Shown here one piece after another: positions 10,293 to 33,924 of a stretch of DNA of 35,764 nucleotides. The stretch comes from Campylobacterales bacterium (GTDB lineage: Bacteria; Campylobacterota; Campylobacteria; Campylobacterales; QNZT01), in assembly GCA_027056215.1 (NCBI GenBank), contig JALULO010000116.1:1-35764 (forward strand), written 5' to 3'. The notes beneath the pieces were generated by a model. The model ran no database searches and was not told the DNA's origin. It saw nothing but the letters and a program-made list of their open reading frames with translations. Position numbers and translations under genes: made by a program. Each line of letters opens with the position of its first letter. Within the stretch, counting starts at the first letter, position 1.

Positions 10293-10308
10293 TGTTTGTT
10301 GGCTAACA
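10293..10308. promoter_or_regulatory. Site A of the TGTTA-N6-TAACA palindrome (TGTTTGTTGGCTAACA), upstream of hdeD
   Basis: Lies 21 nt from the -10-like TATCAT on the minus strand (plus-strand coordinates 10266-10271). See the regulon finding. Confidence 0.55.
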
Positions 10309-10393
10309 GTTATGCATAAATATTGCTTTGATTGTGTGTTTTTATGATAGCTGAATTATTTGTTAGATAAGGGTGGATGAAGTCTGAGAGGAA

Positions 10394-10423
10394 AGGAAGT
10401 CACCTCTTTGTCAGTGACTTCTT
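10394..10423 (-). terminator. Hairpin terminator after the YfdX gene pair
   Basis: GAAGTCAC (10396-10403) pairs with GTGACTTC (10414-10421) around a 10-nt loop. It starts about 8 nt after the stop at 10431. On the minus strand it is followed by CTTTCCTCTC. Confidence 0.45.
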
Positions 10424-10430
10424 CATGTGC

Positions 10431-11573
10431 TTATTTGACTGTATCTTTTAGATCCTTTTCTACCTCTTTTTTAAAATTTTCTTTATCTAGTTTCGTTTCG
10501 AAACGTTCTTTGCTTCCAGTTTCTTCAACTTTCGCTTTAGCACGTGGATTACCTTCGGTCATTTTTGGTTTGGCGAGTGCTGTGGCTTCTTCTTTTGCAA
10601 CTGAATCGATCAGCGTTGCATAAGCTGTTTTTGATTTTTCATAATCTGTTTTTTGTACATTGCCTTTTTTACTTTTCGTTATAAGTTTGTCTATTTCAGA
10701 CATAAGCGTTTTAGAGGCATTTGATGATGTAGGGAGATAGCCTTCGATGTGTGCCAATTGTAATTGCTCTTTTGCTAGTTGTATTAATTTGGTTTCTTTA
10801 TCCTTTCGTGATTTGGAAAGTTCCTGAGCAGTGGTTATCGCTTCTTGTGAAATAAGTAACGAAATAGGAACCGTCATCTTTGTGTGGACGATTGTATCAA
10901 CACCTCTTAATAAAATCTTAAGTGCTACTTTTGCACCTTTGTTTTGATGGAGAGCTTTAAGTGCCGTTTTTGTTGCAATGGGATAAAGTTCCATAGGCAA
11001 ATAGGCTGTATCAATAGTGAGTTGATTTCGTAGTAGTAACAATAAATCAATCGCATCCTGAGTTTGGTCATTTTCCAAGAGTTTTAGTGACTTTTGTTTG
11101 ATTTTTTGAGCTTCTGTTAGTGTGATACCATGTTCTAGAACAGAGAGGGAGACATCAACTGGTACAAATTTTAATTTTTGATTGTTTTTGAGTGCCTTGT
11201 CAAAGAGTTTAGAAGCAGCTTTAAGGGCGATTGTTGCTGATTTTGTTTTATCTTTTTCTAGTGAAGCCATAGCCTCGTCAGTTAAATCAAGTGCTTGCAG
11301 AATCTCCATAGGTGATTGTGTCAATTTTTGACCTTGTTTTTTAACGGCTTTATTGATGATTTGATGTTCAGGTAGCAGACCAAGTGAATTGTAGTATGCC
11401 AACTCTTTTTTACTTACTTTATAGTGCGCATTGTCAAATCCGTAAAATGAATGGATTGGAACGTCAGCATTTTTGATCATTTTAAGCTCTGTTGGCTTGA
11501 TAGAGTCTGCTGTAAGTATCGTTGTAGCAAGCATAAGTGCTGTTGTGATGGAAAACATGATTTTAGTTTTCAT
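10431..11573 (-). CDS. YfdX-family periplasmic protein with K/E-rich C-terminal extension (paralog 1)
   Basis: Signal peptide present. The YfdX-like core includes ...LKAASKLFDKALKNNQKLKFVPV... and ...IDTAYLPMELYPIATKTALKAL...LLRGVDTIVHTKMTVPI. This resembles the E. coli YfdX pattern YLMPL...A...LL...G..D..., recalled from memory. Confidence 0.7.
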   Translation of the reverse strand: MKTKIMFSITTALMLATTILTADSIKPTELKMIKNADVPIHSFYGFDNAHYKVSKKELAYYNSLGLLPEHQIINKAVKKQGQKLTQSPMEILQALDLTDEAMASLEKDKTKSATIALKAASKLFDKALKNNQKLKFVPVDVSLSVLEHGITLTEAQKIKQKSLKLLENDQTQDAIDLLLLLRNQLTIDTAYLPMELYPIATKTALKALHQNKGAKVALKILLRGVDTIVHTKMTVPISLLISQEAITTAQELSKSRKDKETKLIQLAKEQLQLAHIEGYLPTSSNASKTLMSEIDKLITKSKKGNVQKTDYEKSKTAYATLIDSVAKEEATALAKPKMTEGNPRAKAKVEETGSKERFETKLDKENFKKEVEKDLKDTVK

Positions 11574-11612
11574 AAGTTGATCCTTTTATATGATATTTTT
11601 TATTTTTATACT

Positions 11613-12623
11613 TTAGAAACTATCTGTTTGTGCTTTTTGTTCAAAATGCAACTTATCTTTTGTCTCTTCGGATGAAGCTTGGGCATGTGGTTTTGTTGTA
11701 CTATTCCATACCGAATCATTCTTGGCAATTTTTCGTTTTTCCAGACGCATTTTACGTAAAAGAGCTCCAAAGTCATTTTTTACTTTTTGATAAAGTTTCT
11801 CTGTGTCATTTTTGCCTTTTATTTCTACTTTGAGAGCAGTTATCTGTTTTTCAAGTGATGTATACTCTTTAGAATGTTTACCGATATATCCAAGCAAATG
11901 ATCTTTTTGCAATTCTTGTTGTGCTGCATCAAGTAATGCCGTTGTCTCTTTTTTATTCTTTTTTTCAACTTTTGATGCTGCTGTAACTAAATCTTGTGCC
12001 GTAAGCAGACCGATAGGAATCACAACTCTACTATTTACAAATGTATGCATTCCATCTATCAAAGTCATCAGCGCAACTTTTTTATCCCCTTTTTTAAGTG
12101 CTTCAAGTGCTTTTTTTGTTGCAGTTGGATAAAGATCCATCGGAATATATATGGTATCTATGTCCATCTCATCTGTAAGTGGTTGTAAAATTGCTTTTGA
12201 TTCTTGTACTTTATGATCTTTTAGTAATTTGATAGACATATCGATAGCCTTTTGTATCTCTTTTGGTGTAGCGTCGATGGCATAGAGTCCAATCCTATTG
12301 TTGATAGGTACAAGTTTAAGATTTGGATCTACCTTGAGTGCTTTATCAAATAGCTTTGTTGCTTTGGTAAGTGCATCTTCCGCAGCTTTAGTATCTTTTT
12401 TTTGTATTGCATCTGTTGCAAAAAGGCTATTATTTAAACCAGATATAATATCTTTGGATGCAGTCTTAAATGTTTTTTGCTGTAAAGCTGCTTCTTTTGC
12501 AACGACTTGTTGTGTGAGCTTTGTGTGTGTAGCATGCTGTGATGTAGAGTTTGCCTGTAAAGCTAATGATCCGAACATCAATGCCGCCGCGATAGTTGAA
12601 ATAGAAATAATATTTTTCATCAT
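11613..12623 (-). CDS. YfdX-family periplasmic protein (paralog 2)
   Basis: Same architecture as the downstream paralog: LTKATKLFDKALKVDPNLKLVPI..., IDTIYIPMDLYPTATKKALEAL..., LIDGMHTFVNSRVVIPI. It has a signal peptide and is arranged in tandem with paralog 1. Confidence 0.7.
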   Translation of the reverse strand: MMKNIISISTIAAALMFGSLALQANSTSQHATHTKLTQQVVAKEAALQQKTFKTASKDIISGLNNSLFATDAIQKKDTKAAEDALTKATKLFDKALKVDPNLKLVPINNRIGLYAIDATPKEIQKAIDMSIKLLKDHKVQESKAILQPLTDEMDIDTIYIPMDLYPTATKKALEALKKGDKKVALMTLIDGMHTFVNSRVVIPIGLLTAQDLVTAASKVEKKNKKETTALLDAAQQELQKDHLLGYIGKHSKEYTSLEKQITALKVEIKGKNDTEKLYQKVKNDFGALLRKMRLEKRKIAKNDSVWNSTTKPHAQASSEETKDKLHFEQKAQTDSF

Positions 12624-12691
12624 GAATCTCCTAAAATTTTTTGTAGTTTAATTATATCACTAAATAAAGTTAAATAATAAATATGAAGTTA

Positions 12692-12712
12692 ATTGATGGT
12701 TAACCAATCAAT
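12692..12712. other. Imperfect palindrome ATTGATGGTTAACC(A)ATCAAT overlapping the deaminase stop codon
   Basis: A perfect GGTTAACC core is flanked by ATTGAT/ATCAAT arms with one bulged A. It could be a terminator hairpin or a protein-binding site upstream of the YfdX genes. Confidence 0.3.
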
Positions 12713-13172
12713 AACGTATTTTATGAGGATTGTTATTCCAGTATTTGAAAAGTTCCTGACACTGGTGTTTTGGCGTATGGGTAAATTTGATAGGGTCTTT
12801 GGTATTTTGTTTGATGATTTCAGTGATCAGTACATCATCAAAACCGATTTTTGCGCTTTGTATTTGCGTGTTACAGTAGAAAACTTTTTCGATATGAGCC
12901 CAGTGGATTGCAGCAAAGCACATAGGACATGGTTGCGCGGTAACATAAAGATGGCAACCGTTAAGATGAAAATTTGCTAATTTTTGAGCTGCTTCGCGGA
13001 TAGTCACGATTTCAGCATGTGCTGTAGGATCATTGTTTTTAACTACTTCATTGTGCCTTAGGGCAATCACTTTATCATCTTTGACGATAAGTGCGCCAAA
13101 AGGACCACCATCACCTGCGTCGATCCCCCTTTTGGCTTCTTCAAGGGCGAGTTCCATAAAATCTTGTTTCAT
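12708..13172 (-). CDS. Guanine deaminase (CDA-fold nucleoside/nucleotide deaminase)
   Basis: HAE zinc motif (PTAHAEIVTIREA) and PCPMCFAAI motif. The sequence is colinear by eye with B. subtilis GuaD (GGPFGA.IVKD...NDPTAHAE...C.PCPMC.GAI.WA). I chose the start at the ATG at 13172 (MKQDFMELAL...) because it avoids overlap with the upstream gene. The ORF itself is open to 13205. Confidence 0.8.
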   Translation of the reverse strand: MKQDFMELALEEAKRGIDAGDGGPFGALIVKDDKVIALRHNEVVKNNDPTAHAEIVTIREAAQKLANFHLNGCHLYVTAQPCPMCFAAIHWAHIEKVFYCNTQIQSAKIGFDDVLITEIIKQNTKDPIKFTHTPKHQCQELFKYWNNNPHKIRY

Positions 13173-13185
13173 GTTCCCTAGCCCC

Positions 13186-13887
13186 TTAGTTACGTTGATT
13201 TCCAAAAAACTCTAGAAACATTACAAAGAGATTGATAAAATCAAGATAAAGGGAAAGTGCACCGACGATTGCCACGCGACTGAGGCTTTCTCCTGATCTA
13301 TTTGCCATATCTTCGCCCATAGCTTTTATCTTTTGGGTGTCATATGCAGTGAGTCCCACAAATATAATGACTCCAATCACACTAATCCACCACTCAAATA
13401 CAGGACTCTTAAGAAAAAAGTTGACTACTATTGCGATGATAATACCGATCAAGCCTGCAAACAGGATAGATCCCCATGAACTCAGATCTGTATCTGTAAA
13501 ATAGCCGTAAAGACTCATAACACCAAATGTCAATGCGGTTATGAAAAAAGTCATTGCAATGGAAGTTTCAGTATAGATTAAAAATATACCTCCTAGTGTC
13601 AAACCGTCTACAAATGAGAAAAGGATAAAAAGTACCCGTGCACTAGAAACATCCATCTTATTGATACCTGCAGAAATTGCTACGACCAGTCCTATCTCTA
13701 CCGCTAAAAGTACCCAAATCATATAAGGATTACCAAAGAGGATGTGGATAAGTGTTGGGCTATGTGAAACCATGAATGCAGTTAGACCAGATACCAGTAA
13801 ACCGATCATCATCCAGTTATAAACTGATCTTAACAGCAAGTTGGTATCTGCTTCGCGCAAATGTGTAGTTAAAATATTATTTTGCAT
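13186..13887 (-). CDS. BAX inhibitor-1/YccA-family membrane protein
   Basis: 233 aa with about 7 TM segments. It has the typical family layout, including ...YDTQKIK... before the last TM segments. Confidence 0.85.
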   Translation of the reverse strand: MQNNILTTHLREADTNLLLRSVYNWMMIGLLVSGLTAFMVSHSPTLIHILFGNPYMIWVLLAVEIGLVVAISAGINKMDVSSARVLFILFSFVDGLTLGGIFLIYTETSIAMTFFITALTFGVMSLYGYFTDTDLSSWGSILFAGLIGIIIAIVVNFFLKSPVFEWWISVIGVIIFVGLTAYDTQKIKAMGEDMANRSGESLSRVAIVGALSLYLDFINLFVMFLEFFGNQRN

Positions 13888-13950: not shown

Positions 13951-13966
13951 TGTTAGCTAACAAACA
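13951..13966. promoter_or_regulatory. Site C of the palindrome (minus-strand read TGTTTGTTAGCTAACA; contains the perfect 12-mer TGTTAGCTAACA), upstream of the BI-1 gene
   Basis: Lies 22 nt from a perfect minus-strand TATAAT (plus-strand coordinates 13923-13928). Confidence 0.55.
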
Positions 13967-14033: not shown

Positions 14034-14264
14034 TTATAGTCTGTATGTTTCTTTGATTTTGTGAAGTAGATAATAAGCTATAGTAGTAGAAAATATTACG
14101 TTAATAACGATGAGCCAGATATCGCTGTTTGTTGGCATCACCATGAGATCTTCGCCAAGTTTCGGGTTGGAGTACCAGCCAAAGAGTGTAAAAAGCCTAT
14201 CGATTGCCCAGTAGGCAAAATAAGCAAAAATATTGAAAAGGATAAAAGTGGTGAAGCGGGACAT
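14034..14264 (-). CDS. Small two-TM membrane protein, unknown function
   Basis: 76 aa with two hydrophobic helices. A strong RBS (AAGGAG) lies 6 nt upstream of the ATG. Confidence 0.6.
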   Translation of the reverse strand: MSRFTTFILFNIFAYFAYWAIDRLFTLFGWYSNPKLGEDLMVMPTNSDIWLIVINVIFSTTIAYYLLHKIKETYRL

Positions 14265-14359
14265 AGTTCTCCTTTTTTCAGTGTATGTTCATATATAAGC
14301 ACAAAGCAGTCCTGAAACTGAAAATCAGCATAGATTTCCAGTTTTCGGAAGTAAGAGTT

Positions 14360-14974
14360 TTAGGAAAGGATCTCTTCGATGGTGATATAGTCACCAACTC
14401 TACCGGTCATCTTCTCTGCATCGGTATTTACCGGAAGTGTTTTTTTACCCGGTCTCCAGCCTGCAGGACAGACTTCACCAGTTTTTGTGGCATGCTGCCA
14501 TGCTTCTACCTGTCTTAAGAACTCGTTGACATTTCTACCGACTGAGGGAGCTTGTACTTCCTGTGCGACAACAACACCGTCAGGATTGATCAGAAATCTT
14601 CCACGCAAAGCAATACCTTCATCTTCAAGCAATACACCAAAGGCACGACTTACTTCTTTTGTAGAGTCAGCACCAATGGTGAGTTTAAGATCTTTTAAAA
14701 GAGGCTCAGTTTCTACAAATCTTTTGTGTGAAAATTTTGTATCGGTCGATACCGCCAGGATATCTACACCCATAGCCTGAAATTCATCATATTTTGCATT
14801 CATAGCGGCGATCTCTGTAGGGCATACAAATGTAAAGTCGGCAGGGTAAAAACAGACTACATGCCATTTACCTTTATAGTCGTCACTCTTTACTGTCGTG
14901 TAGTGACCACTTTTCGCGTCATATGCTTCCATCGCAAATTCGGGTGCTTTTCTCATAACCAATGTTGAACTCAT
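14360..14974 (-). CDS. ahpC: Typical 2-Cys peroxiredoxin (AhpC/TsaA family)
   Basis: Peroxidatic Cys motif: FYPADFTFVCPTE. Resolving Cys motif: GEVCPAGW. I chose the start at the ATG at 14974 because AAGGAG lies 6 nt upstream. The ORF is open to 15061. Confidence 0.9.
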   Translation of the reverse strand: MSSTLVMRKAPEFAMEAYDAKSGHYTTVKSDDYKGKWHVVCFYPADFTFVCPTEIAAMNAKYDEFQAMGVDILAVSTDTKFSHKRFVETEPLLKDLKLTIGADSTKEVSRAFGVLLEDEGIALRGRFLINPDGVVVAQEVQAPSVGRNVNEFLRQVEAWQHATKTGEVCPAGWRPGKKTLPVNTDAEKMTGRVGDYITIEEILS

Positions 14975-15135
14975 GTTGTTCTCCTTTTGTTTGTTTTCAT
15001 GTTTAGTCTCGTTTTCAGAGATACCTTCTTCTTTTGCTTCGATTGGATTTTCACATCCCATTTTCGATCCTTATACTTAAGTGATGTTTGAATTATAATA
15101 TCATAAGGATAATAATTAGTAAACGAAAATAATTA

Positions 15136-16980
15136 TTAAATATTTTCTTCTCCTGTACCCCCGAGTCCCTTAATCATAGAAACGGGAAATTCCGTATCGA
15201 CAGAGCGTATGTGTAGATCGCGTTGAGGAAAGGGAATCTCGATGCCGTTGGCATAAAGAGCATCGTAGATGAGGATCAGAAAGCGTGAAGTGGTACGTTT
15301 GGGGTAGAGTATCTCTCGTCCGACGAGCCAGACAAAAAGTTCATAATTAACGCTACTATCGCCCATCTCTGTCATAACAACTCTAGTATAACGCTCTTGT
15401 GTTTTATAGATATTATTGAAGTTACTGGTTTTAACTGCTTCTAGTACAACATCGATTACTTTTTGTGGTTTAGTACCATACGCTACACCAAAGGGAATCT
15501 CAAAACGGCGTATCTTATCATTCATAGTCCAGTTAATGACACGATTTTGGATCAGATCTTGATTGGGTACGATGATGTCAATGTTAGAGTTGGTATTGAT
15601 AGTGATAGAGCGCATTTTGATATCGACTACATGACCTCGGATATTGTCATCAAGTTGGATATAGTCTCCGATCTTAACACTACGCTCTACCATTAAAATG
15701 ATACCGGAAACAAAGTTTGAAATAATATTTTGCAATCCAAAACCGATGCCGACAGAGAGTGCTCCAGCGACTAGGGCGATGGAGCTAAGATCGATACCAA
15801 GTATTTTGAGTACGATAAAGAAAGTGATGATAAAGATCAAATAATAACCCAGATTGGAAAGTAGTGTCCGTGTGCTAGCAGTGATAGTTCTATTTTTCAG
15901 TGAGAGGCGTTTGATTTGATGTTTATAAAAATTTCCAACAAAAAAACCAAGGATAAAAATTAGTAAGGAAATGAAAAGTTTGACGATACTTACCGGAGTT
16001 TTGTTGATCATAAAGAGTGGTTGATTGGTGATTTTCCAAAGGTGTTTTATTTGGCTTTGAAGTTCTTGTATACCTTTTCCCTTGATTGCATCGACTGTCC
16101 CCAAAATAGATTTTTCCATTTGCGTTAGTAAAGTATCAGTATCTTCAGTGATAGTAGGTTCATTACTAATATGTATTTGTAGATAGGTTGTAATCTGCTT
16201 TTGAAGCGTAAAAGCATTGTCGTTTTTTTGTTCCAGTGCGATACTAAAACGTAAAAAAAGTAACTCTAGCTCTTTTTGGGAAAGATTTGTTTGACGATCT
16301 TTGAGTTTCAAAAGTCGATTTTGAACATACTTTATCATGTCTGTACGATCAAGTAGTGTATAGCGTTCTTTTTTGATGAGAATTTTCTGGGTCGAAGTAT
16401 TAATCTTACTCAATTCTGTATCGAGTTTTTTTTGTGCGTTTTGAATCGCTTTTGGATCAAATGTGATATGTTGTATCGCAGTCGTAAGCAATGCTGTGAT
16501 GTGTCTAATCTCCCTTTTTTGTAAGGTTAGTTTTGTTTGTGCCTGTTGCTGCTCTTTGGCATAAAGTGCATAAAATAGTTGTGTTGTGAGTGTGGTAGTA
16601 TTATGATCTTTGATTTGTCTATTGAGCGTTTCTATTTTGTTGGCAGTGATTTGAAGTGCATTTTGGTTTTGTGCTTGTTCCAAACTAGTTTGGATAAAGA
16701 GATCAAATAGTTGTAGATAGCTTTTTTGATCGGTAGGGGTGGGAAGATTGTGTTCTTTTGGTTGTATTGTACGTTTGAGTTTAATCAGTTTATTTAAAAG
16801 TGTCTTTTGTAAGCTGATTTCATCGGTAGTTTTTTTTAAATGAGAAAGCTTCTTGTATAAGGAAGTATAGACTTGTGTATTTCCTGTGATGATTGTACTG
16901 TTAAGATCGGCACTAAAGAGTAGTGATGGGAGGAAAAGCAGACATAGTACCCAACCATTTTTTACAAAGATACGTTTCAA
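15136..16980 (-). CDS. MscK/MscS-family mechanosensitive channel with long periplasmic coiled-coil N-domain
   Basis: Signal peptide followed by about 330 aa of Q/K/L-rich helix, then TM segments. The MscS core is GALSVGIGFGLQNIISNFVSGIILMVERSVKIGDYI. Confidence 0.85.
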   Translation of the reverse strand: MKRIFVKNGWVLCLLFLPSLLFSADLNSTIITGNTQVYTSLYKKLSHLKKTTDEISLQKTLLNKLIKLKRTIQPKEHNLPTPTDQKSYLQLFDLFIQTSLEQAQNQNALQITANKIETLNRQIKDHNTTTLTTQLFYALYAKEQQQAQTKLTLQKREIRHITALLTTAIQHITFDPKAIQNAQKKLDTELSKINTSTQKILIKKERYTLLDRTDMIKYVQNRLLKLKDRQTNLSQKELELLFLRFSIALEQKNDNAFTLQKQITTYLQIHISNEPTITEDTDTLLTQMEKSILGTVDAIKGKGIQELQSQIKHLWKITNQPLFMINKTPVSIVKLFISLLIFILGFFVGNFYKHQIKRLSLKNRTITASTRTLLSNLGYYLIFIITFFIVLKILGIDLSSIALVAGALSVGIGFGLQNIISNFVSGIILMVERSVKIGDYIQLDDNIRGHVVDIKMRSITINTNSNIDIIVPNQDLIQNRVINWTMNDKIRRFEIPFGVAYGTKPQKVIDVVLEAVKTSNFNNIYKTQERYTRVVMTEMGDSSVNYELFVWLVGREILYPKRTTSRFLILIYDALYANGIEIPFPQRDLHIRSVDTEFPVSMIKGLGGTGEENI

Positions 16981-17057
16981 CTAAATTTCCCTTTTGGATG
17001 ATGATTTTTACGATAAACACATAGCATAATACATTCCTATTTATAATCTATTTTGTA

Positions 17058-18339: not shown

Positions 18340-18543
18340 TTTTCGATTTTTTTGATCTGATTATCGGGTAATACCATCAAACAGCGAGCTGATACCGACA
18401 AGTCAGGTTTCTGCTGCTACAGAAGTCCATGAAACAAGAAAGATGATTGCTAATACCAGTGAGAAAAATCCATTCATGATAGCATATTTGCTATATTTTG
18501 GCAAAATATCCAGATCTGAGGGTAACATAGAATAGTTCCACAT
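18340..18543 (-). pseudogene. hdeD paralog remnant (large internal deletion plus frameshift; a 46-codon ORF persists at 18403..18543)
   Basis: The minus-strand translation is MWNYSMLPSDLDILPKYSKYAIMNGFFSLVLAIIFLVSWTSVAAET*. This matches HdeD residues about 1-22 fused to about 134-156. Further out-of-frame similarity (..GISSLFDGIT..) extends to about 18340. The RBS AAGGAG is retained. Confidence 0.7.
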
Positions 18544-18637: not shown

Positions 18638-18653
18638 TGTTTGTTAGCTAACA
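18638..18653. promoter_or_regulatory. Site B of the palindrome (TGTTTGTTAGCTAACA), upstream of the hdeD remnant and the Nramp-like gene
   Basis: The flank tgtctgtttgttagctaacagttatg is nearly identical to that of site A. The same 21-nt gap separates it from the same atgata element (18611-18616). Confidence 0.55.
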
Positions 18654-19821: not shown

Positions 19822-20015
19822 GCCATATTCCTATATCTTCCAGTTTCAGCAACTTCGTGTCAATTATTCTTTGAGTTCGTTGACCGGTGAAGAGAAACCG
19901 AGTATACGCATAAGTGGCATCACATGTTCAATCTCTGAATCCTGCGATGCTTTGTGTTGATGATTATGTGTGATTTACTCCTGTATTTTAGATTGCAGGA
20001 GCATTGCGATGTTTC

Positions 20016-20274: not shown

Positions 20275-20290
20275 TGTTAGTTGGCTAACA
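20275..20290. promoter_or_regulatory. Site D of the palindrome (TGTTAGTTGGCTAACA), upstream of the 66-aa ORF
   Basis: The half-sites TGTTA/TAACA are perfect. It lies 21 nt from a minus-strand TACTAT (plus-strand coordinates 20248-20253). Confidence 0.5.
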
Positions 20291-24074: not shown

Positions 24075-24090
24075 TGTTAGTTGACTGACA
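24075..24090. promoter_or_regulatory. Site E of the palindrome (TGTTAGTTGACTGACA) in the divergent crp / MBL-pps intergenic region
   Basis: Lies 21 nt upstream of the extended -10 TGaTATAAT (24109-24117) that faces the plus-strand operon. Confidence 0.5.
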
Positions 24091-25578: not shown

Positions 25579-25603
25579 TACTAAATAACATCTGGGGGTT
25601 ATT

Positions 25604-28021
25604 ATGAGTAGTAAATATGTAAAATGGTTTAATGAGATTGGAATAGAAGATGTTGTAGAAGTGGGAGGTAAAAATGCTTCTTTGGGTGAGATGTATCAAA
25701 ATCTCACAGAAGAAGGAGTACGTGTTCCCAATGGATTTGCGATAACGGCATCGGCATATAAGTATATTCTCGATTATAATGATGCATGGAAAAAGTTACA
25801 TGAGCAGCTTGATATGCTTAAACCGAACGATGTCAAGGTTCTGCAGGAAAAAGGTGCGGCATGTCGTCAGATTATCTATGATTGTGAATTGCCAACTGAC
25901 TTGAAAACGGAAATTTTGTCCGGTTATGCTGCTTTGAAAAAAGAGTACGGCGAAGGGCTTTCGCTGGCGGTACGTTCTTCGGCAACGGCGGAAGATTCCC
26001 CCGAAGCCTCATTTGCAGGACAGAACGATACCTATCTGAACATTGCGTCCGATGAAGCATTGCTGGATGCGTATAAACGTTGTCTGGCTTCCAACTTTAC
26101 AGATCGTTCCATTCACTACAAGTACGACAACGGGTTTGACTATTTTAAAGTCTATCTCTCTGTCGTTGTGATGAAGATGGTTCGTTCTGATGTAGGTGCT
26201 AGTGGGGTCATGTTCAGTCTTGATACAGAGACAGGTTTTAAAGATGTTGTTTTTATCAATGCTGCGTTAGGACTTGGTGAAAATGTCGTTCAAGGAACGA
26301 TCGATCCTGATAGTTTTTATATCCATAAACCAACCTTTAGTAAAGGTTTTCATGCAGTGTTAAAACGTCGTTTAGGAAAGAAACATCTTAAAATGGTTTT
26401 TACAGATACACTTAATACTGACAATATAGCAGTAGAATATACCAAAAACATTGAGACAAGCGAAGATGAGCGTAAATGTTTTTGTATCACAGATGATGAT
26501 GCTATGGTTTTGGCAGATTATGCGATCAAAGTGGAAGACCATTACTCTAAAAAGGCAGGTTATCATAAGCCTATGGATATGGAGTGGGCAAAAGATGGTA
26601 TGGATGGGCATCTTTATATGGTACAGGCACGCCCGGAGACAGTTGAATCCCAGAAAAAGGGAAATATCCTTAAGATGTACAGACTTAAAGAAAAAAGTAA
26701 GGTACTGGTAAGTGGACGTGCAGTCGGTACGAAGATCGGGCAGGGGGAAGTACGTACTATCACTGATGTCAAGTATTTGAGTGATTTTAAACCAGGAGAA
26801 GTACTTGTTGCAGATACAACGACACCGGATTGGGAACCTATTATGAAAACTGCTTCTGCTATCGTGACCAATAGGGGAGGACGTACGTGTCACGCAGCGA
26901 TTGTCTCCCGTGAATTGGGGATTCCTGCAGTAGTGGGTTGTGATAATGCTACTAAAGTACTTACAAATTCCCAAGAGGTCACGGTTAGTTGTGCCGAGGG
27001 TGAGACCGGATATGTTTATGATGGTAAACTTGATTATGAGATTGACAAAACTGATCTTTCTCAACTTCCTGAAACCAAAACAGAGATCATGATGAATCTG
27101 GGAAATCCGGATATCGCATTTTCGCTGGCATCACTTCCGGTAGATGGTATCGGATTGGCACGGATGGAGTTTATCATCAACGAATATATCAAAGCACACC
27201 CGATGGCTTTGCGTCACCCAGAAAAGGTTGACGATCAGACACGTAAAGCACTGGAAGAACTCAGCGAGGCATATGATACCATGGAAGATTTCTTCGTCAA
27301 AACCCTCTCCGAAGGTGTTGCGACGATTGCGGCGACGGTGTATCCCAAACCGTGTGTTGTGCGTATGAGTGATTTCAAAACCAACGAATACGCCACACTG
27401 CTAGGCGGAAAGTTCTTTGAACCGGTGGAAGACAATCCTATGATCGGCTTTCGCGGTGCGGCACGCTATGCCAATCCTGCCTATGAAGAGGGATTTGCGC
27501 TGGAGTGCAAGGCGATGAAACGGGTACGCGAAGAGATGGGGTTTGACAATGTTATCTTGATGATTCCTTTCTGCCGTCGTGTGGATGAAGGCAAACGCGT
27601 ACTGGAAACCATGGCAAAATATGGACTCAAACGGGGTGAAAAGGGATTGCAGATTTATGTCATGTGTGAAATCCCGAACAATGTCATCCAGATCGATGCT
27701 TTCAGCGAAATCTTTGACGGTTTCAGTATCGGCTCCAACGACTTGACACAGCTTACACTTGGGGTGGATCGTGACAGCGAAATCGTGGCATTTGACTACG
27801 ATGAACGCGATCCGGGTGTCATGAAGATGATTGAGATGGCAGTCGAAGGTGCCAAACGCAACAAACGACATAGCGGTATCTGCGGACAGGCACCGTCGGA
27901 TTATCCCGAAGTGGCGGAGTTTCTGGTGAAACTGGGTATCGACTCTATTAGCCTCAATCCCGACAGTGTGCTCAAAACCCTGCGGGATATTGTCCGGCTT
28001 GAAAAAGAGTTGGGGAGATAA
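25604..28021 (+). CDS. ppsA: Phosphoenolpyruvate synthase (pyruvate, water dikinase)
   Basis: 805 aa. N-terminus: VGGKNASLGEM. Catalytic His loop: TNRGGRTCHAAIVSRELGIPAVVG. C-terminal PEP-utilising TIM domain: GIGLARMEF...GFSIGSNDLTQL. Confidence 0.97.
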   Translation: MSSKYVKWFNEIGIEDVVEVGGKNASLGEMYQNLTEEGVRVPNGFAITASAYKYILDYNDAWKKLHEQLDMLKPNDVKVLQEKGAACRQIIYDCELPTDLKTEILSGYAALKKEYGEGLSLAVRSSATAEDSPEASFAGQNDTYLNIASDEALLDAYKRCLASNFTDRSIHYKYDNGFDYFKVYLSVVVMKMVRSDVGASGVMFSLDTETGFKDVVFINAALGLGENVVQGTIDPDSFYIHKPTFSKGFHAVLKRRLGKKHLKMVFTDTLNTDNIAVEYTKNIETSEDERKCFCITDDDAMVLADYAIKVEDHYSKKAGYHKPMDMEWAKDGMDGHLYMVQARPETVESQKKGNILKMYRLKEKSKVLVSGRAVGTKIGQGEVRTITDVKYLSDFKPGEVLVADTTTPDWEPIMKTASAIVTNRGGRTCHAAIVSRELGIPAVVGCDNATKVLTNSQEVTVSCAEGETGYVYDGKLDYEIDKTDLSQLPETKTEIMMNLGNPDIAFSLASLPVDGIGLARMEFIINEYIKAHPMALRHPEKVDDQTRKALEELSEAYDTMEDFFVKTLSEGVATIAATVYPKPCVVRMSDFKTNEYATLLGGKFFEPVEDNPMIGFRGAARYANPAYEEGFALECKAMKRVREEMGFDNVILMIPFCRRVDEGKRVLETMAKYGLKRGEKGLQIYVMCEIPNNVIQIDAFSEIFDGFSIGSNDLTQLTLGVDRDSEIVAFDYDERDPGVMKMIEMAVEGAKRNKRHSGICGQAPSDYPEVAEFLVKLGIDSISLNPDSVLKTLRDIVRLEKELGR

Positions 28022-28023
28022 AG

Positions 28024-30126
28024 ATGCAAAGCAACGCTATCTTCCTCTACAGCGATGCCCGACGATCCGGAACGCGGATTGTCGCGCTGGGGTTGATGGC
28101 GATGCTCAAACGTGAAGTAGCCGATGTTGCCTACTTCAAGCCGATTATCACAAAGCCTGTCGAAGAAGAGCGTGATATCGACTTTTTCAAACACTACTTT
28201 AAACTCAGACAGCCTGTAGAGAGTGCTTACGGATTGCATATTGACGAAGTGCAAAAGCTGATTGCCGAAGATCGTCTTGGCGAAGTCTATGAACGTATTT
28301 TGGAACGCTACCATGCGCTCGAAGGAGCGTACGATGTGATTTTGTGCGAGGGCATAGAAGATGATTTCGATTTTGAACAAGTACTCGATTTTGACATAGA
28401 TCTGGAGATCGCTGCTAGTCTTGCGATTCCTATGATTGCGATTGTCAATGCCAAAAAAACAGAAAATCTGGAAACTTTAGAACAACATCTCAAACTGCTT
28501 GAGCGTACATTTGCGAAACATCGTCTTCATCTTCTTTCATTTGTTGTCAACCGTCTTGATGTTTCATTTGTAAAAGCTTCCCAAAAAGTGCTTCAGACGG
28601 AGGCACCACTTTTTGTTCTTCCCGAAATGGCGGAACTCAATCAGCCTACGATTGCCGAGATCATGGAGCAGACAGGTGCAACACTTATTTCCAAAGATGA
28701 GAAGATGCTGGATCGTTCCGTGGCACAGAGTATCGTCGGAGCGATGACACTAGAGCATTATCTGAACTATCTGAAAGATGGTGATTTGATTATCGTGCCG
28801 GGGGATCGTTCGGATATTTTGGTAGGAACTTACTGGGCGAATCTGTCACGAAAAAATCCTTCGATTGCGGGCATGCTTCTGACCGGAGGTCTGGTTCCTG
28901 CCGAGAGTATCATGCAGTTGCTTTCGGGCGTTGATTTTCCTGCACTGCCGATGATCGGACTTCATGAAGATACCCAGGCAGCGGCTTTGAAAGTGCAGGC
29001 GGTACAGTCGGAAATCACGCTCAAAAGTGAACGGAAAATCTCTCTGGCAGAGGGGCTTTTCTGTGAACACGTTGATCTGGATATCATCAAAAAACGTCTG
29101 ACACTTTCTCGTCCAGAGACGATGACTCCAGTACGGTTTACTTATATGCTTTATGAAAAGGCGCGTCATTCAGGTAGTGATGTGTTGCTTCCTGAAATTG
29201 ATGACGAGAGGGTTCTTCGAGCTGCTGAGATTGTGCTTCGTCGTAAACTATGTAAAATCACACTGTTGGGAAACCCGGAAAAAATCGCCCAGCGTGCTAG
29301 TTTACTGGGACTAAACCTCTCTGGCGCACGTATTGTTGATCCTGAGAATTTTCCGGATATGGACAAATTTGTCGAAACATTTTATCAGTTACGTAAACAC
29401 AAAGGTATCATCCTTCCAATGGCAAAGGAGATGATGAGCCGGGTCAGCTACTTCGCAACGATGATGGTTCATCTGGGCTATGCAGATGCTCTAGTCAGCG
29501 GTGCTACCCATACGACACGTGAAACAATCAAACCCGCTTTTGAGATTATCAAAATGGAACCAGAAGAGAAACTCATCTCTAGTGTTTTTTTTATGTTATT
29601 GCATGACAGGGTGCTTGTGTACGGTGATTGCGCGGTCAATCCCGATCCAAATGCTGAAGCGTTGGCTGAGATTGCCATTCAGTCTGCACATACTGCACAG
29701 GCTTTTGGGCTAGTACCACGGGTGGCAATGCTTTCTTATTCTAGTGGTGATTCCGGTGTTGGGGAAGATGTAGACAAAGTGCGTAAAGCAATGGAAATAG
29801 CAAAACAAAGAGCACCTGAATTGCTGATCGAAGGACCGATGCAGTATGATGCAGCCATTGATCCAAAAGTTGCCAAAGAGAAGATGCCTGGAAGCAAAGT
29901 TGCTGGACAGGCGACGGTTTTTATCTTTCCCGATCTCAATACCGGAAACAATACCTACAAAGCGGTACAGCGTAGTGCCGGTGCTATCGCAATCGGTCCG
30001 ATTTTGCAGGGTATTCGAAAACCGGTCAATGATCTGAGTCGCGGCTGTTTGGTGGAAGATATTGTCCATACGATTGCGATTACCGCAGTACAAGCGGCGA
30101 TGGAGAAGGCGAAACAGAAATCATGA
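28024..30126 (+). CDS. pta: Phosphate acetyltransferase, long form (BioD-like/DRTGG N-domains plus PTA_PTB domain)
   Basis: 700 aa. The C-terminal half (...GADALVSGATHTT..., ...YGDCAVNPDP..., ...SYSSG.SG..., FIFPDLNTGNNTYKAVQR) is a classic Pta. It starts 2 nt after the pps stop. Confidence 0.95.
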   Translation: MQSNAIFLYSDARRSGTRIVALGLMAMLKREVADVAYFKPIITKPVEEERDIDFFKHYFKLRQPVESAYGLHIDEVQKLIAEDRLGEVYERILERYHALEGAYDVILCEGIEDDFDFEQVLDFDIDLEIAASLAIPMIAIVNAKKTENLETLEQHLKLLERTFAKHRLHLLSFVVNRLDVSFVKASQKVLQTEAPLFVLPEMAELNQPTIAEIMEQTGATLISKDEKMLDRSVAQSIVGAMTLEHYLNYLKDGDLIIVPGDRSDILVGTYWANLSRKNPSIAGMLLTGGLVPAESIMQLLSGVDFPALPMIGLHEDTQAAALKVQAVQSEITLKSERKISLAEGLFCEHVDLDIIKKRLTLSRPETMTPVRFTYMLYEKARHSGSDVLLPEIDDERVLRAAEIVLRRKLCKITLLGNPEKIAQRASLLGLNLSGARIVDPENFPDMDKFVETFYQLRKHKGIILPMAKEMMSRVSYFATMMVHLGYADALVSGATHTTRETIKPAFEIIKMEPEEKLISSVFFMLLHDRVLVYGDCAVNPDPNAEALAEIAIQSAHTAQAFGLVPRVAMLSYSSGDSGVGEDVDKVRKAMEIAKQRAPELLIEGPMQYDAAIDPKVAKEKMPGSKVAGQATVFIFPDLNTGNNTYKAVQRSAGAIAIGPILQGIRKPVNDLSRGCLVEDIVHTIAITAVQAAMEKAKQKS

Positions 30127-31307
30127 AACTCTTTGTTCTCAACTCCGGCAGCTCCTCTTTGAAATATACCTTGTATGATATTCGTGACGGTATCCGTAAA
30201 ATTGTCTGGGGTATGGTAGAGCGTATCGGTGAGAAAGAGGGTAGGGTGACACTTTTTCATGCATTGGAAAAAGAGGTGATTTTGGCACATATCAAAGATC
30301 ATCATAACGCTTTGAAACTGGTGCTGAGGCAGTTAGATAAATATGGATATCTCAAATCTTTTTCCGATTTAGCAGGCTGTGCACACCGTGTGGTGCATGG
30401 CGGGGCGAAATTTACTGCACCAACGCTGATCGACCGGGAAGTGCTGGAAGCCATCGAAGAGCTGATCCCACTTGCCCCTTTGCATAACCCCGCCAATCTC
30501 GAAGGGATCAAAACGCTCATGAAGCTTTCCCCTACAACGCCACAGATTGCACTTTTTGATACGGCGTTTCATCAGAGTATGCCGGAGGTCGCGTATCGAT
30601 ATGCATTGCCCGAAGCGATGTCCCTTGAACTCGATATCCGCCGTTACGGCTTTCATGGACTTTCACACCACTATTTGCGGGATGAAACGGCAAAATTACT
30701 CTCAAAAGCACCGCGTCAGTGCAATTTAATCACCCTACATCTTGGAAATGGTGCTAGTGTCGCAGCGATAAAAGCGGGAAAAAGTATCGATACGTCGATG
30801 GGATTTACACCGCTGGAAGGTTTGGTGATGGGAACACGCCCAGGGGATCTCGATGCAGGTATTTTACTCTATTTGATGCAAAGCAAAGGTATGGATGCAG
30901 CAGCACTAGATCAGTTACTCAACCATGAAAGCGGACTCAAAGGGCTTTGCCATACCAACGACATGCGTGAGATTTTGGAGCGAAAAGCACAGGGAGATGT
31001 AAAAGCGACACTGGCTTTTGAAATTTTTTGCTACCGGATTCAAAAATATATTGGAGCTTATCTGGCGATTTTGGGTGGTGTGGATGCTGTTGTTTTTGCT
31101 GGGGGCATCGGAGAACATAGTGCAGAAGTGAGGGAACGGATCTGTACGCAGATGTCCCACCTCGGGTTGGTGATAGACGAAGTGAAAAACCGTGCTTTCA
31201 CAAAAGGTGCGCAGATGGTGCATAGCCCGCAGAGCAAAATAAAAATTGCCGTTGTGCAGACCGATGAAGCGTTGCAGATGGCAAGAGAGAGTGTTAAAAT
31301 ATTATAA
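30123..31307 (+). CDS. ackA: Acetate kinase
   Basis: N-terminus: VLNSGSSSLKY. Further motifs: HRVVHGG, ...FDTAFH..., ...GFHGLSH..., ...LHLGNGAS..., ...MGTR.GD.D.... Its ATG overlaps the pta stop (ATGA at 30123-30126). Confidence 0.95.
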   Translation: MKLFVLNSGSSSLKYTLYDIRDGIRKIVWGMVERIGEKEGRVTLFHALEKEVILAHIKDHHNALKLVLRQLDKYGYLKSFSDLAGCAHRVVHGGAKFTAPTLIDREVLEAIEELIPLAPLHNPANLEGIKTLMKLSPTTPQIALFDTAFHQSMPEVAYRYALPEAMSLELDIRRYGFHGLSHHYLRDETAKLLSKAPRQCNLITLHLGNGASVAAIKAGKSIDTSMGFTPLEGLVMGTRPGDLDAGILLYLMQSKGMDAAALDQLLNHESGLKGLCHTNDMREILERKAQGDVKATLAFEIFCYRIQKYIGAYLAILGGVDAVVFAGGIGEHSAEVRERICTQMSHLGLVIDEVKNRAFTKGAQMVHSPQSKIKIAVVQTDEALQMARESVKIL

Positions 31308-31317
31308 GGAGAAAAAT

Positions 31318-33843
31318 ATGCCACACAAATCCCGAAAAATCAAAGCGGTACTGATGGCAGGCGGTTTTGGAACACGTATCCAGCCCCTGACAAACTCTGT
31401 ACCAAAGCCGATGCTTCCCATACTCAATATCCCGATGATGGAACATATCGTCAATAAATTACGACGAAGTGGTATAGACGAAATAGTCATATTGCTCTAT
31501 TTTAAACCCGAAGTGATTCAAGAACATTTTGGGGATGGTAGCAGCCGTGGTGTGAAAATCACCTATGCTCTACCCGATGATGACTATGGTACAGCTGGTG
31601 CAGTGGGATTTGCCAGAGAACATCTTGATACCACTTTTATGATTGTTAGTGGGGATTTGGTGACAGATTTTGATTTTGATGAGATCATCGCATTTCATAA
31701 ACAAAAAGCTTCAAAATTAACGATTACATTGACACCTGTTGAAGACCCTTTACAATTTGGTGTTGTCATTACCGATGATGACGGGAAGATAGAGCGCTTT
31801 TTAGAAAAACCAAGTTGGGGTGAAGTTTTTAGCGATACGATCAATACCGGTATTTATCTAATCGAACCGGAGATTTTGGACTATATTCCGCAAAATAGCT
31901 CTTATGATTTTTCAAAGGATCTTTTCCCTCACTTGATGGAAGAAGGGATTACCTTGTGGGGATGTAGTGTACAGGGGTACTGGAGAGATGTGGGGAATCC
32001 TATGAGTTACCGTGAAGTGCATCAAGATATCTTTGAGGGGAAAGTGCTCTATGATTTGCCAGGACACTGTATCCAAAATGAGACGGTAAATCTTTGTTTA
32101 GAAGATGGTGTTCAGTTACCTCGTACAGTGACGACTCGTGGGATAGTTGTGATTGGCAAAGGTACGACCATAGCTGATGGAGCTGTATTGGAAAATTGTG
32201 TGATTGGACGAAATTGTGAGATTGGTAAAAACGTGCAGATAGAAAATAGTATACTTTGGGAGAGGGTACACGTTGGTGCAAAAAGTCGTTTGAACAATGT
32301 CATAATTTGTAATGATACGACGATTGATGAATCGTGCAGTATCAGAGATGGGGCGGTGATTGCCGAGTTTTGCAGAATTGACGAGGGTGTGAAGATCATC
32401 AAAGATGTGACTGTCTGGCCGCATAAAGTCATAGAGAAAAAAGCGGTTGTCAGCAGCAATGTTGTTTGGGGTGAGATGTACAAAAGTTCCCTGTTTCACA
32501 AAGGTAAAGTGATTGGTTCCGCCAATGTAGAACTCACCGGAGAGATGGCAGTGAAGATCGCCGAAGCGTTTGGTACGATTTTGCAGGAGGGCTCGACAGT
32601 CTATGTCTCCAGAGACTATCACCCTTCTTCACGGATGCTAAAACGGTTTGTTCTGGGAGGACTCCTTTCTACCGGTATCAACTGTGTCGATATCCAGGCG
32701 ATCCCGAGTAACGTCATGCGTCATGAACTCTTCAAAAACGAAGATATTGCAGCGGGTGTGCATATCCGTCACTCTGTCAGCCATATCAATAAAACAGAGA
32801 TTGTCTTTTTTACACACGAAGGGATGTTAATCGATACCAATTTGGCAAAGAGTATCGAGCGTATTTTTTTTCGTGAACAGTTTCGCCGTGTCAATCCTGG
32901 ACGTATTGGAAAGATTCAAGAAAGCTACGACATGAAGTTAGCGTATAAACGAGATGTTAGGGCATTGATTTCCAAAGAGATTTTTGCAGGTGTGCATTTT
33001 AAAATAGCAGCCAATATGTTACATGGTATGGTAAGTGATATCTATCCTGCACTACTAGATACACTGGGGATTGATAATATTATGATCAATGATTATGTTA
33101 GTGTAAAAAAACTGGAAAAAATCACTGCCCAAAATCAGGTCGCAGCAAAACAAGAACTCTCCGATATCGTTAAAGCATTAGGTCTTTGTGTGGGGATTAT
33201 GCTCTATCCCAATGGACAGCGGATGGATATCGTTGATGATCATGGAGTGATTCTTCCTCGTGAGCGGGTACTAATGGCACTTTTATATATGCTTCATTTG
33301 CATGATAGTAAAACCTATAAAGTTTATTTGCCTGCGTGGGCACCGGATATCATGGACGATAAATTTACGGATATCGAAATCAAACGGGGACGGTTGATGG
33401 GCAAAAAGACAGAATATTTAGGACAGTTTGATTTGGTTGCTGACGTGGATGCGCATTATGCTTTTACAGAATTTGGCTATCACAGTGATGCGATTTATGC
33501 AAGTTTGAAAATTCTTGAGTTTATGGTGTTGCATAAAATGAACTTTTCAAAAATATTGGAGCATATTGAAGATTTCTACTATTTTGCAATCTCACTTTCA
33601 TGTCCTGCTGCAACTAAAGGAAAAGTGATGCGACTTTTTATGGAAGAGGGGAAAAACTATACCATTTCACACCTCGATGGTATCAAAATCACTTTTGAAA
33701 AAAATGAATGGGTCTTGATGATTCCAGATGATCATACAGATTTGGTACATTTATATGTACAATCTTTTGAGCGAAAAAGAGGGGAAGATCTGAAAGAACG
33801 ATATGTGCAAAAGATGAAGGAGTGGATTTCTGAGGATATGTAA
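31318..33843 (+). CDS. Fusion protein: sugar-1-phosphate nucleotidyltransferase (plus left-handed beta-helix) fused to a phosphohexomutase-like domain
   Basis: The start ATG at 31318 is preceded by AAGGAG, and the ORF is open from 31246. N-terminus: AVLMAGGFGTRIQPLTNSVPKPMLP (G-x-G-T-R NTP-transferase loop). Hexapeptide repeats follow. From about residue 390 there is a PGM/PMM-like fold. Confidence 0.8.
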   Translation: MPHKSRKIKAVLMAGGFGTRIQPLTNSVPKPMLPILNIPMMEHIVNKLRRSGIDEIVILLYFKPEVIQEHFGDGSSRGVKITYALPDDDYGTAGAVGFAREHLDTTFMIVSGDLVTDFDFDEIIAFHKQKASKLTITLTPVEDPLQFGVVITDDDGKIERFLEKPSWGEVFSDTINTGIYLIEPEILDYIPQNSSYDFSKDLFPHLMEEGITLWGCSVQGYWRDVGNPMSYREVHQDIFEGKVLYDLPGHCIQNETVNLCLEDGVQLPRTVTTRGIVVIGKGTTIADGAVLENCVIGRNCEIGKNVQIENSILWERVHVGAKSRLNNVIICNDTTIDESCSIRDGAVIAEFCRIDEGVKIIKDVTVWPHKVIEKKAVVSSNVVWGEMYKSSLFHKGKVIGSANVELTGEMAVKIAEAFGTILQEGSTVYVSRDYHPSSRMLKRFVLGGLLSTGINCVDIQAIPSNVMRHELFKNEDIAAGVHIRHSVSHINKTEIVFFTHEGMLIDTNLAKSIERIFFREQFRRVNPGRIGKIQESYDMKLAYKRDVRALISKEIFAGVHFKIAANMLHGMVSDIYPALLDTLGIDNIMINDYVSVKKLEKITAQNQVAAKQELSDIVKALGLCVGIMLYPNGQRMDIVDDHGVILPRERVLMALLYMLHLHDSKTYKVYLPAWAPDIMDDKFTDIEIKRGRLMGKKTEYLGQFDLVADVDAHYAFTEFGYHSDAIYASLKILEFMVLHKMNFSKILEHIEDFYYFAISLSCPAATKGKVMRLFMEEGKNYTISHLDGIKITFEKNEWVLMIPDDHTDLVHLYVQSFERKRGEDLKERYVQKMKEWISEDM

Positions 33844-33855
33844 AACTTTTTAAAC

Positions 33856-33871
33856 TGTACGCTAACTAACA
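33856..33871. promoter_or_regulatory. Site F of the palindrome (TGTACGCTAACTAACA; weakest copy), upstream of the LOG / H+-ATPase genes
   Basis: The right half-site TAACA is perfect and the left half matches 3 of 5 positions. It lies 21 nt upstream of a perfect TATAAT (33893-33898). Confidence 0.4.
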
Positions 33872-33924
33872 GAAACTGTGCAGAGATTGCACTATAATTC
33901 TATTATTAACATAGAGGAGTTTTT

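Follow-up and report, generated by a model that had tools for sequence, protein, structure and literature searches.

What links genes for acid stress, ion transport and acetate metabolism on a single contig of a Campylobacterales bacterium? The question is raised by a stretch of 35,764 nt (contig JALULO010000116.1; "the window" is this whole stretch) from a deep-sea-vent organism known from metagenome-assembled genomes only. Ahead of such genes stand six 16-bp palindromes, sites A to F, each at a nearly constant distance from a -10-like hexamer, and the gene at 23243..23974 encodes a regulator of the Crp/Fnr superfamily. A comparison of the window with related loci and contigs (designated by L-numbers) makes it likely that the six palindromes are sites for a dimer of this regulator, which would activate stress, ion and carbon promoters from a class-II position; we infer the activation itself from the promoter geometry. 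That Crp/Fnr dimers activate from class-II positions is a textbook principle; what is new is the family member and its regulon.

The sequence-only reading had listed six 16-mers of the form TGTTA-N6-TAACA, with -10 hexamers at 21 nt (22 nt for site C), and all the sites, hexamers and spacings are present as it described them (Table 1). The sites are real, but the consensus was too loose. With up to two mismatches, the 5-N6-5 pattern matches the window 36 times against 29.6 expected, which is not a significant enrichment, and for this reason it was dropped in favor of a 6-N4-6 palindrome, TGTTAG-N4-CTAACA, with a conserved center and conserved flanks. At most one mismatch in the 12 specified bases leaves five window sites against 0.097 expected from 300 shuffles, an enrichment of about 50-fold. 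Moreover, a weight matrix built from other genomes only ranks the six sites as the top six matches of the window, with scores of 16.4-24.2; the next-best match scores 10.7 and overlaps site C, and the best matches of shuffled windows average 8.5. The six sites had also been placed between genes, and intergenic DNA, which makes up 7% of the window, does hold them all (binomial p = 1e-7). Site B had been related to site A by duplication, and it is indeed a copy of the hdeD promoter together with about the first 30 hdeD codons. A and B being paralogous, the window holds five independent sites.

These numbers bear on whether the palindromes are chance matches in AT-rich intergenic DNA, or a dispersed repeat of the repetitive extragenic palindrome (REP) or miniature inverted-repeat transposable element (MITE) kind. 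The A/B duplication and the absence of enrichment for the loose pattern would be expected in this case. However, the 12-position consensus is strongly enriched, the flanks of the sites are unrelated to each other except in the A/B pair, and the sites are kept at orthologous promoters in other genera. Apart from A and B, no longer unit is shared, and the distances to the -10 hexamer and to the ATG are fixed, so that the motif does not belong to the REP/MITE class; it is neither frequent within genes nor part of a longer dispersed repeat, either of which had been named beforehand as a ground for giving up the regulon. The shuffles, the fixed -10 spacing, the intergenic placement and the ranking by the outside-built matrix refute an origin by chance or repetition, which is hardly conceivable.

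Promoter geometry in related genomes

A total of 80 genome loci encoding homologues of the 23243..23974 regulator were compared. The motif TGTYAG-N4-CTRACA is present in nearly every Campylobacterota locus that holds such a homologue, and the refined matrix carries 20 bits, with the extended consensus ttcTGTYAGCYRGCTRACAgaa. In the related loci, where the intergenic share is 10%, 60 of 66 high-scoring sites are intergenic, the few "genic" ones being artefacts of a crude caller of open reading frames (ORFs). The distance from site to ATG is most often 53-64 nt. Of 82 site-gene pairs, 68 have a TAnnnT hexamer at 21 or 22 nt (45 at offset 21 and 23 at offset 22), and every other offset between 0 and 49 has 0-10 hexamers. 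With the hexamer taken as -12 to -7, this spacing would place the center of the site at -41.5 or -42.5.

Footprinting of orthologous promoters and a check of the spacing had been proposed as tests, and both were passed, the sites and the 21-22 nt being kept in other lineages. Sites of the same geometry are found ahead of hdeD (L012, L015, L030 and L130), of BI-1 in Sulfurovum loci (L005 and L016), of a DUF389 gene followed by Nramp (L042 and L044), of a CysZ-like gene followed by the beta-CASP gene (L001, L002, L011 and L113) and of pps (L003, L021, L022, L035 and L102). The orthologous site E and its -10 are kept in L001, L113 and L120, and the LOG-ATPase pair has an independent promoter with a site in L008. 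For the 66-residue ORF, homologues of 45-68% identity occur in L050, L031, L019 and L015, in the last two within site-headed operons. Thus, each of the six units proposed for the window has a site-bearing counterpart in an independent lineage: hdeD, BI-1, Nramp by way of DUF389, the 66-residue ORF inside site-headed operons, beta-CASP together with pps, and LOG-ATPase.

Many palindromes of the relatives are flanked on either side by a hexamer 21-22 nt away and so stand midway between divergent -10 boxes, and in other related loci each promoter has a site of its own, the two being 42-43 bp apart. A spacing that is strict and independent of lineage, a palindrome that works in either orientation, the sharing between divergent promoters and the paired sites 42-43 bp apart make class-II activation the best supported mode. 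The same Crp-family protein could in principle repress, bound from -49 to -34 and blocking RNA polymerase until a signal frees it from the site. The site does cover the position of polymerase sigma region 4, some Crp/Fnr proteins are repressors, and the -10 hexamers are near consensus, several of them with an extended TG, so that the promoters might need no activator in a phylum whose promoters have no -35 box. Nonetheless, repressor operators need no fixed spacing, whereas the 21-22 nt are maintained in 83% of the site-gene pairs, among genes that are unrelated and lineages that are far apart, and a single palindrome exactly between divergent -10 boxes corresponds to contact-dependent class-II activation. 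Repression is accordingly regarded as unlikely. The fixed distance to a -10-like hexamer would also suit promoters of an alternative sigma factor, with the motif as their upstream, -35-like element. However, a palindrome of 16-22 bp works both ways and for two divergent promoters at once, the hexamer downstream is of the housekeeping TATAAT type, and the element reaches -49, well past a -35 hexamer, which makes a sigma element very unlikely.

In the mechanism favored here, that of class II, a dimer of the regulator would bind the ttcTGTYAGCYRGCTRACAgaa palindromes 21-22 bp upstream of a sigma-70-type -10, with its center at about -41.5 or -42.5. At this position, the dimer would touch RNA polymerase directly and activate promoters that have no usable -35. 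The predicted targets would be proteins of acid and envelope stress (HdeD, YfdX, YflT and BI-1), ion transporters (Nramp, MscS, the P-type ATPase and possibly NhaP and ClC), peroxiredoxin for redox protection, and enzymes of phosphoenolpyruvate (PEP), acetate and glycolytic metabolism (pps, pta, ackA, aldolase and enolase). Across vent Campylobacterota, in which regulator family, motif and geometry are all retained, one palindrome would often serve two divergent promoters, one of them that of the regulator's own operon. As predicted binding sites, the palindromes are very probably the points from which the neighboring regulator turns on genes for acid, ion and energy stress.

A search independent of the regulator was made by scanning metagenome contigs with ATTATA-N21-22-TGTYAGYYRRCTRACA. 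This DNA pattern is present in 52 contigs. In at least 18 of them, a regulator homologue is encoded no more than a few kb away, and genes of the regulon (yfdX, hdeD, yflT-cydAB, CysZ-like/beta-CASP and pps) are found in about 31. Four unrelated contigs, L097 (six copies), L119, L105 and L091, have many exact copies of TGTTAGTTAACTAACA that are off the promoter geometry and have no regulon genes near them; these are probably an operator or a repeat of a different system that matches the pattern by chance. Also, the yfdX and hdeD promoters of many lineages (L013 at 1945, L015 at 2623, L023 at 1642, L094 at 10485, L112 at 9580 and others) have an extra conserved G(G/A)TAAC(T)TT 6-12 nt downstream of the palindrome, along with a TATACT -10. 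This element, absent at window sites A and C, may be a third half-site or the site of a second factor.

The candidate regulator and its recognition helix

Homologues of the regulator with 53-84% identity come almost exclusively from Campylobacterota contigs in metagenomes, which carry the labels Sulfurovum, Sulfurimonas, Sulfurospirillum, Hydrogenimonas and Nitratifractor, and remoter ones, with 38-48%, from genomes of vent Gammaproteobacteria, Nitrospirota and Deltaproteobacteria. The C-terminal winged helix-turn-helix matches Pfam HTH_Crp_2 with 38 bits (cut-off 27), as in members of the Crp/Fnr superfamily, and the N-terminal domain reaches 26.1 bits for cNMP_binding, just under the cut-off of 27.5. 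The AlphaFold2 model (predicted local distance difference test score, pLDDT, 87.9) has a helix at residues 127-153, in keeping with the CRP fold and its beta-roll and long dimerization helix. In Foldseek, the model gives template-modeling (TM) scores of 0.80-0.82 over about 230 columns to CRP of Mycobacterium tuberculosis and to GlxR, at about 20% identity, the value for M. tuberculosis CRP being 0.81. A profile search of Protein Data Bank (PDB) sequences retrieved GlxR, M. tuberculosis CRP, NtcA and CooA with E about 1e-20 to 1e-13 (best 3.5e-20). No NCBIfam equivalog was matched by the regulator, the best being NtcA TIGR03697 with 33.5 bits against a cut-off of 244.95.

The residues of CRP that contact cyclic AMP (cAMP), G71, E72, R82 and S83, are known from established CRP structures. 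In an hhalign alignment to Escherichia coli CRP, they correspond to D89, I90, H99 and V100 of the regulator, and with these contacts missing, the signal would not be cAMP bound in the canonical way. The protein has two cysteines only, at 36 and 56, and the family alignment has no invariant cysteine column, so a cluster of the FNR type is absent.

The sequence-only reading had pointed to 23243..23974 as the factor that binds the palindromes. This choice is supported by homologues that are nearly always accompanied by the palindrome and by motif variants that follow the recognition helix. The helix GSVR-S-VV-ST (RSVVST) pairs with TGTYAG..CTRACA, whereas GSVR-V-VV-NR (RVVVNR), found in the relatives from Gammaproteobacteria, Nitrospirae and Deltaproteobacteria, pairs with TGTAAC..GT(A/T)(G/A)CA. 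Likewise, GSVR-K-VV-NL (RKVVNL) pairs with TGCCTCTTAGGTAACA, that is TGCCTC..GGTAACA, and R-(T/A)-VVS (L031 and L045) with TGTTACCTAGGTAACA. In the alignment to E. coli CRP, Arg at 180 is kept along with the TG of the site, position 181 has Ser, the Glu being lost together with the G of TGTGA, and Ser-Thr occupies 184-185. A specificity rule for residues 180 and 181 has been published (PMC1274295), and both the Arg180/TG pair and the loss of the G with Ser181 fit it. A different transcription factor might still bind the palindromes, with the Crp-family gene a mere member of the regulon, and it is true that in most relatives the regulator gene itself lies downstream of a site, as any member would. 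However, TGT-N10-ACA is the signature shape of CRP-branch sites, and the motif variants track the helix of the Crp-family protein across phyla. No other DNA-binding gene recurs beside the sites in the compared loci. A separate factor is for these reasons quite unlikely, and the Crp-family protein is kept as the candidate binder.

In most relatives, the first gene of the regulator operon, right behind the palindrome, encodes an all-helical partner protein of about 160-180 residues with the motif KKTGxS[IV]ESITYEILEG, present in about 47 loci (e.g., L001 8642-9139 and L010 9506-9985) and absent from the window. Searches of Pfam and PDB sequences with it gave sub-threshold matches only (DUF6781, Phasin_2 and designed helical proteins) and no recognized DNA-binding domain, which also speaks against the partner being the factor that binds the sites. 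This protein could be a co-sensor or modulator of the regulator.

In L046-L079, from vent Gammaproteobacteria, Nitrospirota and Deltaproteobacteria, the remote regulator homologues are often found as two paralogues in tandem. Just downstream of the gene lies a variant palindrome, TGTAACCC(A/T)GGTAGCA, and the neighbors include hdeD, pps, yflT and ackA. The presence of these genes beside remote homologues suggests that the regulon module has moved between phyla.

Several observations weigh against activation of the window promoters by this regulator. Site F is the weakest, with two mismatches, and B is a duplicate of A. Promoters of Campylobacterota generally lack a -35 box, so that its absence is by itself no argument for activation. 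Most related loci were chosen for encoding the regulator, which biases the regulon census given below toward nearby genes, and the extents of the operons are drawn from gene spacing only. Moreover, on the side of site E that faces the regulator, offset 21 is occupied by TAATTA and there is no TAnnnT at 21-22 nt; a separate TGcTATCAT is located 71 nt from site E and 23 nt from the regulator ATG. In relatives, the partner gene, sometimes with a paralogue, stands between site and regulator, and both are missing in the window, where the homology to the closest relative, L001, ends exactly at the edge of site E. The homology stop and the missing class-II hexamer make autoregulation in the window doubtful.

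Gene units and regulon content

The gene units headed by the sites are collected in Table 1, with domain labels from Pfam and, for unit A, also from NCBIfam. Together with a seventh site on the same contig beyond the window, the palindromes head co-directional gene blocks that fill about 35 kb, and from about 9.1 kb to the right end, Pfam assigns stress, ion and carbon genes throughout. The left 9 kb is devoid of any palindrome, which gives the motif-bearing island a sharp left edge near 9.1 kb.

Table 1. Sites, gene units and other features of the window and its right extension (window coordinates; hexamer and ATG distances are counted from the site)
Feature	Position	Strand	Description
Site A	10293..10308	-	TGTTAGCCAACAAACA, read towards hdeD; -10 TATCAT 10266-10271, 21 nt; hdeD ATG (10233) 59 nt
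Site B	18638..18653	-	TGTTAGCTAACAAACA; -10 TATCAT 18611-18616, 21 nt; copy of promoter A and its 5' coding region
Site C	13951..13966	-	TGTTTGTTAGCTAACA; -10 TATAAT 13923-13928, 22 nt; BI-1 ATG (13887) 63 nt
Site D	20275..20290	-	TGTTAGCCAACTAACA, perfect 6-N4-6 palindrome; -10 TACTAT 20248-20253, 21 nt; ATG of the 66-residue ORF (20216) 58 nt
Site E	24075..24090	+	TGTTAGTTGACTGACA; extended -10 TGaTATAAT, hexamer 24112-24117, 21 nt; beta-CASP ATG (24184) 93 nt
Site F	33856..33871	+	TGTACGCTAACTAACA; -10 TATAAT 33893-33898, 21 nt; LOG ATG (33925) 53 nt
Seventh site	40339-40354 (window-equivalent, after scaffold-gap correction)		TGTTTACTAGCTGACA, right extension (L081); TATAAT 22 nt; ATG of aldolase - FAD-oxidoreductase - enolase block 57 nt
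Regulator	23243..23974	-	Crp/Fnr superfamily, 243 residues, candidate binder; NhaP (21665..23221) and ClC (20313..21605) come next on this strand
Unit A	9124..10233	-	hdeD-like gene (DUF308, 9649..10233), YflT-domain stress protein gene (9124..9636)
Unit C	10431..13887	-	BI-1 (13186..13887), deaminase (12708..13205), YfdX-domain genes (11613..12623 and 10431..11573)
Hairpin	10396-10421		Terminator-like, after unit C (yfdX1)
Downstream of site B	14034..18323	-	Nramp (17058..18323), MscS-family channel (15136..16980), peroxiredoxin (14360..15061), 76-residue ORF (14034..14264)
hdeD remnant	18403..18543	-	46 codons, MWNYSMLPSDLDILPKYSKY..., between site B and the Nramp gene
Site B and duplicated DNA after it	18544-18660		35-nt insertion in the leader
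Unit D	18882..20216	-	Conserved 66-residue ORF (20016..20216), CitMHS-type transporter gene in two frames (19426..19821 and 18882..19622)
Unit E	24184..33843	+	beta-CASP RNase-like gene, pps, pta, ackA, mannose-1-phosphate guanylyltransferase/phosphomannomutase (GMP/PMM) fusion (ATG 31318)
Unit F	33925..35764	+	LOG-family gene (33925..34875), P-type cation ATPase gene (34891 onwards, off the window end; full-length with following genes in L081)
Left region	17-9090		Porin-like fragment, DUF2202 gene, TetR regulator with RND efflux (OEP, HlyD, AcrB), NosD-like gene

The four genes of unit C are taken to form one operon. A generic scan of the window for promoters and terminators gave little enrichment over shuffles, its lone yield being the hairpin after yfdX1. 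Site B stands ahead of Nramp apparently through promoter capture by duplication, and transcription from it may continue by read-through into the Nramp, MscS and peroxiredoxin genes and the 76-residue ORF. An Rfam scan of the window matched no RNA family, so that the 314 nt separating site B from Nramp are no known riboswitch; they represent a remnant of hdeD. In unit D, the CitMHS-type transporter is read in overlapping frames in the window and has a contiguous homologue in L064; either the gene has become a pseudogene through a frameshift, or the assembly is wrong here.

For unit E, gene calls and tight spacing indicate that the five genes would form one operon, to which the GMP/PMM gene would belong because its ATG lies 10 nt past the ackA stop. 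At about 7317-7416 of L081 (window about 31395), inside the start of GMP/PMM, the public scaffold has a gap of 100 N with a 55-nt duplicated overlap, which is collapsed in the window. The G+C content is 0.45-0.46 over pps-pta-ackA (window 24000-34000) against about 0.35-0.37 elsewhere. This segment has 86% nucleotide identity over 5.7 kb to L001, whereas the regulator of L001 is only 78-79% identical at the protein level.

For the regulon as a whole, distinct promoters that combine a site with a hexamer 21-22 nt away and the start of an ORF were counted by their first gene in all loci, which gave 120 promoters. The largest class (36 promoters) is that of the partner, of about 165 residues, followed by the regulator, and yfdX (27) is the commonest target after this operon. 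CysZ-like genes upstream of beta-CASP (9), hdeD (8) and amino-acid permeases (5) come next; pps, yflT and a 192-residue membrane protein with no assigned family have three each, BI-1 and rhodanese two each, LOG, CorA, DUF389, thioredoxin and the regulator gene itself one each, and the remaining 17 have other first genes. Further down in some site-headed operons, cydAB (cytochrome bd) is found. According to these counts, the conserved core comprises the regulator's own operon, yfdX and hdeD, and the carbon genes are more peripheral. In the coupling of pH and ion homeostasis with acetate and PEP metabolism, as originally suggested, the acetate and PEP genes are accordingly the more peripheral part.

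The regulon content suggests that the signal would be low pH, ion stress or energy limitation. More speculatively, this branch of regulators may be the master switch of a stress-survival island shared across phyla of deep-sea-vent bacteria (Campylobacterota, sulfur-oxidizing Gammaproteobacteria, Nitrospirota and Desulfobacterota). The regulator would then sense a cue other than a cyclic nucleotide (e.g., protons, a metal or a metabolite of the energy state) through a His/Asp-rich pocket and, with the conserved helical partner of about 165 residues and no known family, routinely drive two divergent promoters from a single dimer site. We hold this wider view only tentatively, as a possibility with the balance somewhat against it; if true, the regulon would correspond, in vent microbes, to the dormancy regulons of the lxa/Anr and DosR types.

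Regulation in hydrothermal-vent Campylobacterota is little known, and the present assignment of regulator, motif and regulon addresses this gap in the phylum with a testable proposal for organisms known almost only from metagenomes. It would tie acid and ion homeostasis genes (yfdX, hdeD, BI-1, ClC, Nramp and the P-type ATPase) to PEP, acetate and glycolytic genes. Moreover, the paired changes of motif and recognition helix would constitute a specificity code open to mutagenesis, and the motif could be used as a marker for annotating stress regulons in vent metagenomes.

Comparison with known systems

The class-II CRP and FNR promoters of E. coli, with sites centered at -41.5, share with the window a dimeric regulator of the Crp/Fnr fold, a 16-bp TGT-N10-ACA palindrome and a predicted center at -41.5 or -42.5. 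In E. coli malX-malI, one site serves divergent promoters, as the palindromes of the window family would do. However, the motif TGTYAG-N4-CTRACA is neither the TGTGA-N6-TCACA that CRP proper reads through R180, E181 and R185, its position 4 being T or C and its position 6 a conserved G, nor the TTGAT-N4-ATCAA of FNR. The protein differs from CRP in the Ser that replaces Glu181 and in D, I, H and V at the cAMP contacts, and from FNR in having no cysteine cluster; its identity to solved CRP-family structures is about 20%.

Cyanobacterial NtcA, which acts from GTA-N8-TAC at -41.5, resembles the regulator as its best, albeit far sub-threshold, NCBIfam match. The recognition helix of NtcA is RVTVTR, and the remote relatives from Gammaproteobacteria, Nitrospirae and Deltaproteobacteria, with their RVVVNR helix, have a TGTAAC-N4-GTTACA that fits GTA-N8-TAC. 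In contrast, the window clade has T or C rather than A at motif position 4, where A occurs in only 10% of its sites, and its regulon is one of stress, ion and carbon genes rather than of nitrogen assimilation.

Within the phylum, the Nss family (NssR of Campylobacter jejuni; NssA, NssB and NssC of Wolinella succinogenes) comprises activators with palindromic sites near -40, whose targets are nitrosative-stress and denitrification genes (PMC1274295, PMC6682613, PMC11539149). NssR recognizes TTAAC-N4-GTTAA and has A180/Q181 (PMC1274295), and for the W. succinogenes proteins, of which NssA and NssB have a Dnr-type DNA-binding domain, the consensus TTGA-N6-TCAA was used (PMC11539149). The superfamily, the phylum and palindromic sites near -40 are common to both. 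However, judged by these published features (PMC1274295, PMC11539149), the regulator stands apart, with R/S at 180/181, a TGT...ACA motif and another regulon. By its sequence characteristics, it belongs to the Crp/Fnr superfamily, but is not CRP, FNR, NtcA or Nss.

Campylobacterota were described in a 2019 review as having no orthologues of FNR, ArcA and NarP (PMC6682613). In the literature searched, on Campylobacterota, Crp, YfdX, HdeD and vent transcriptomes, no account of the regulon was found, Nss being the sole Crp/Fnr family described there for the phylum. The word "undescribed" in the first reading of the window thus agrees with that literature for both motif and regulon, although this is not proof that no description exists.

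Finally, the closest architectural analogue of the window island is the lxa locus of Burkholderia cenocepacia, where 17 intergenic copies of one Crp/Fnr-type palindrome occur with a local CRP-family regulator (PMC3721108). Their contents overlap in acetate kinase and phosphate acetyltransferase, in a LOG-family "lysine decarboxylase", and in an ATPase for cation transport and a metal-dependent RNase (PMC3721108). Nonetheless, the lxa motif is TGA-N6-TCA (Anr/Fnr-like), and lxa abounds in genes for universal stress proteins and polyhydroxyalkanoate and has no acid/ion module of YfdX, HdeD, BI-1, Nramp and ClC, which here is the conserved core. Moreover, induction by low oxygen is shown for lxa, whereas for the window regulon gene content suggests candidate signals. 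Homology between the two was rejected because the motif and the branch of the regulator differ, and the analogy is one of architecture and of part of the gene content.

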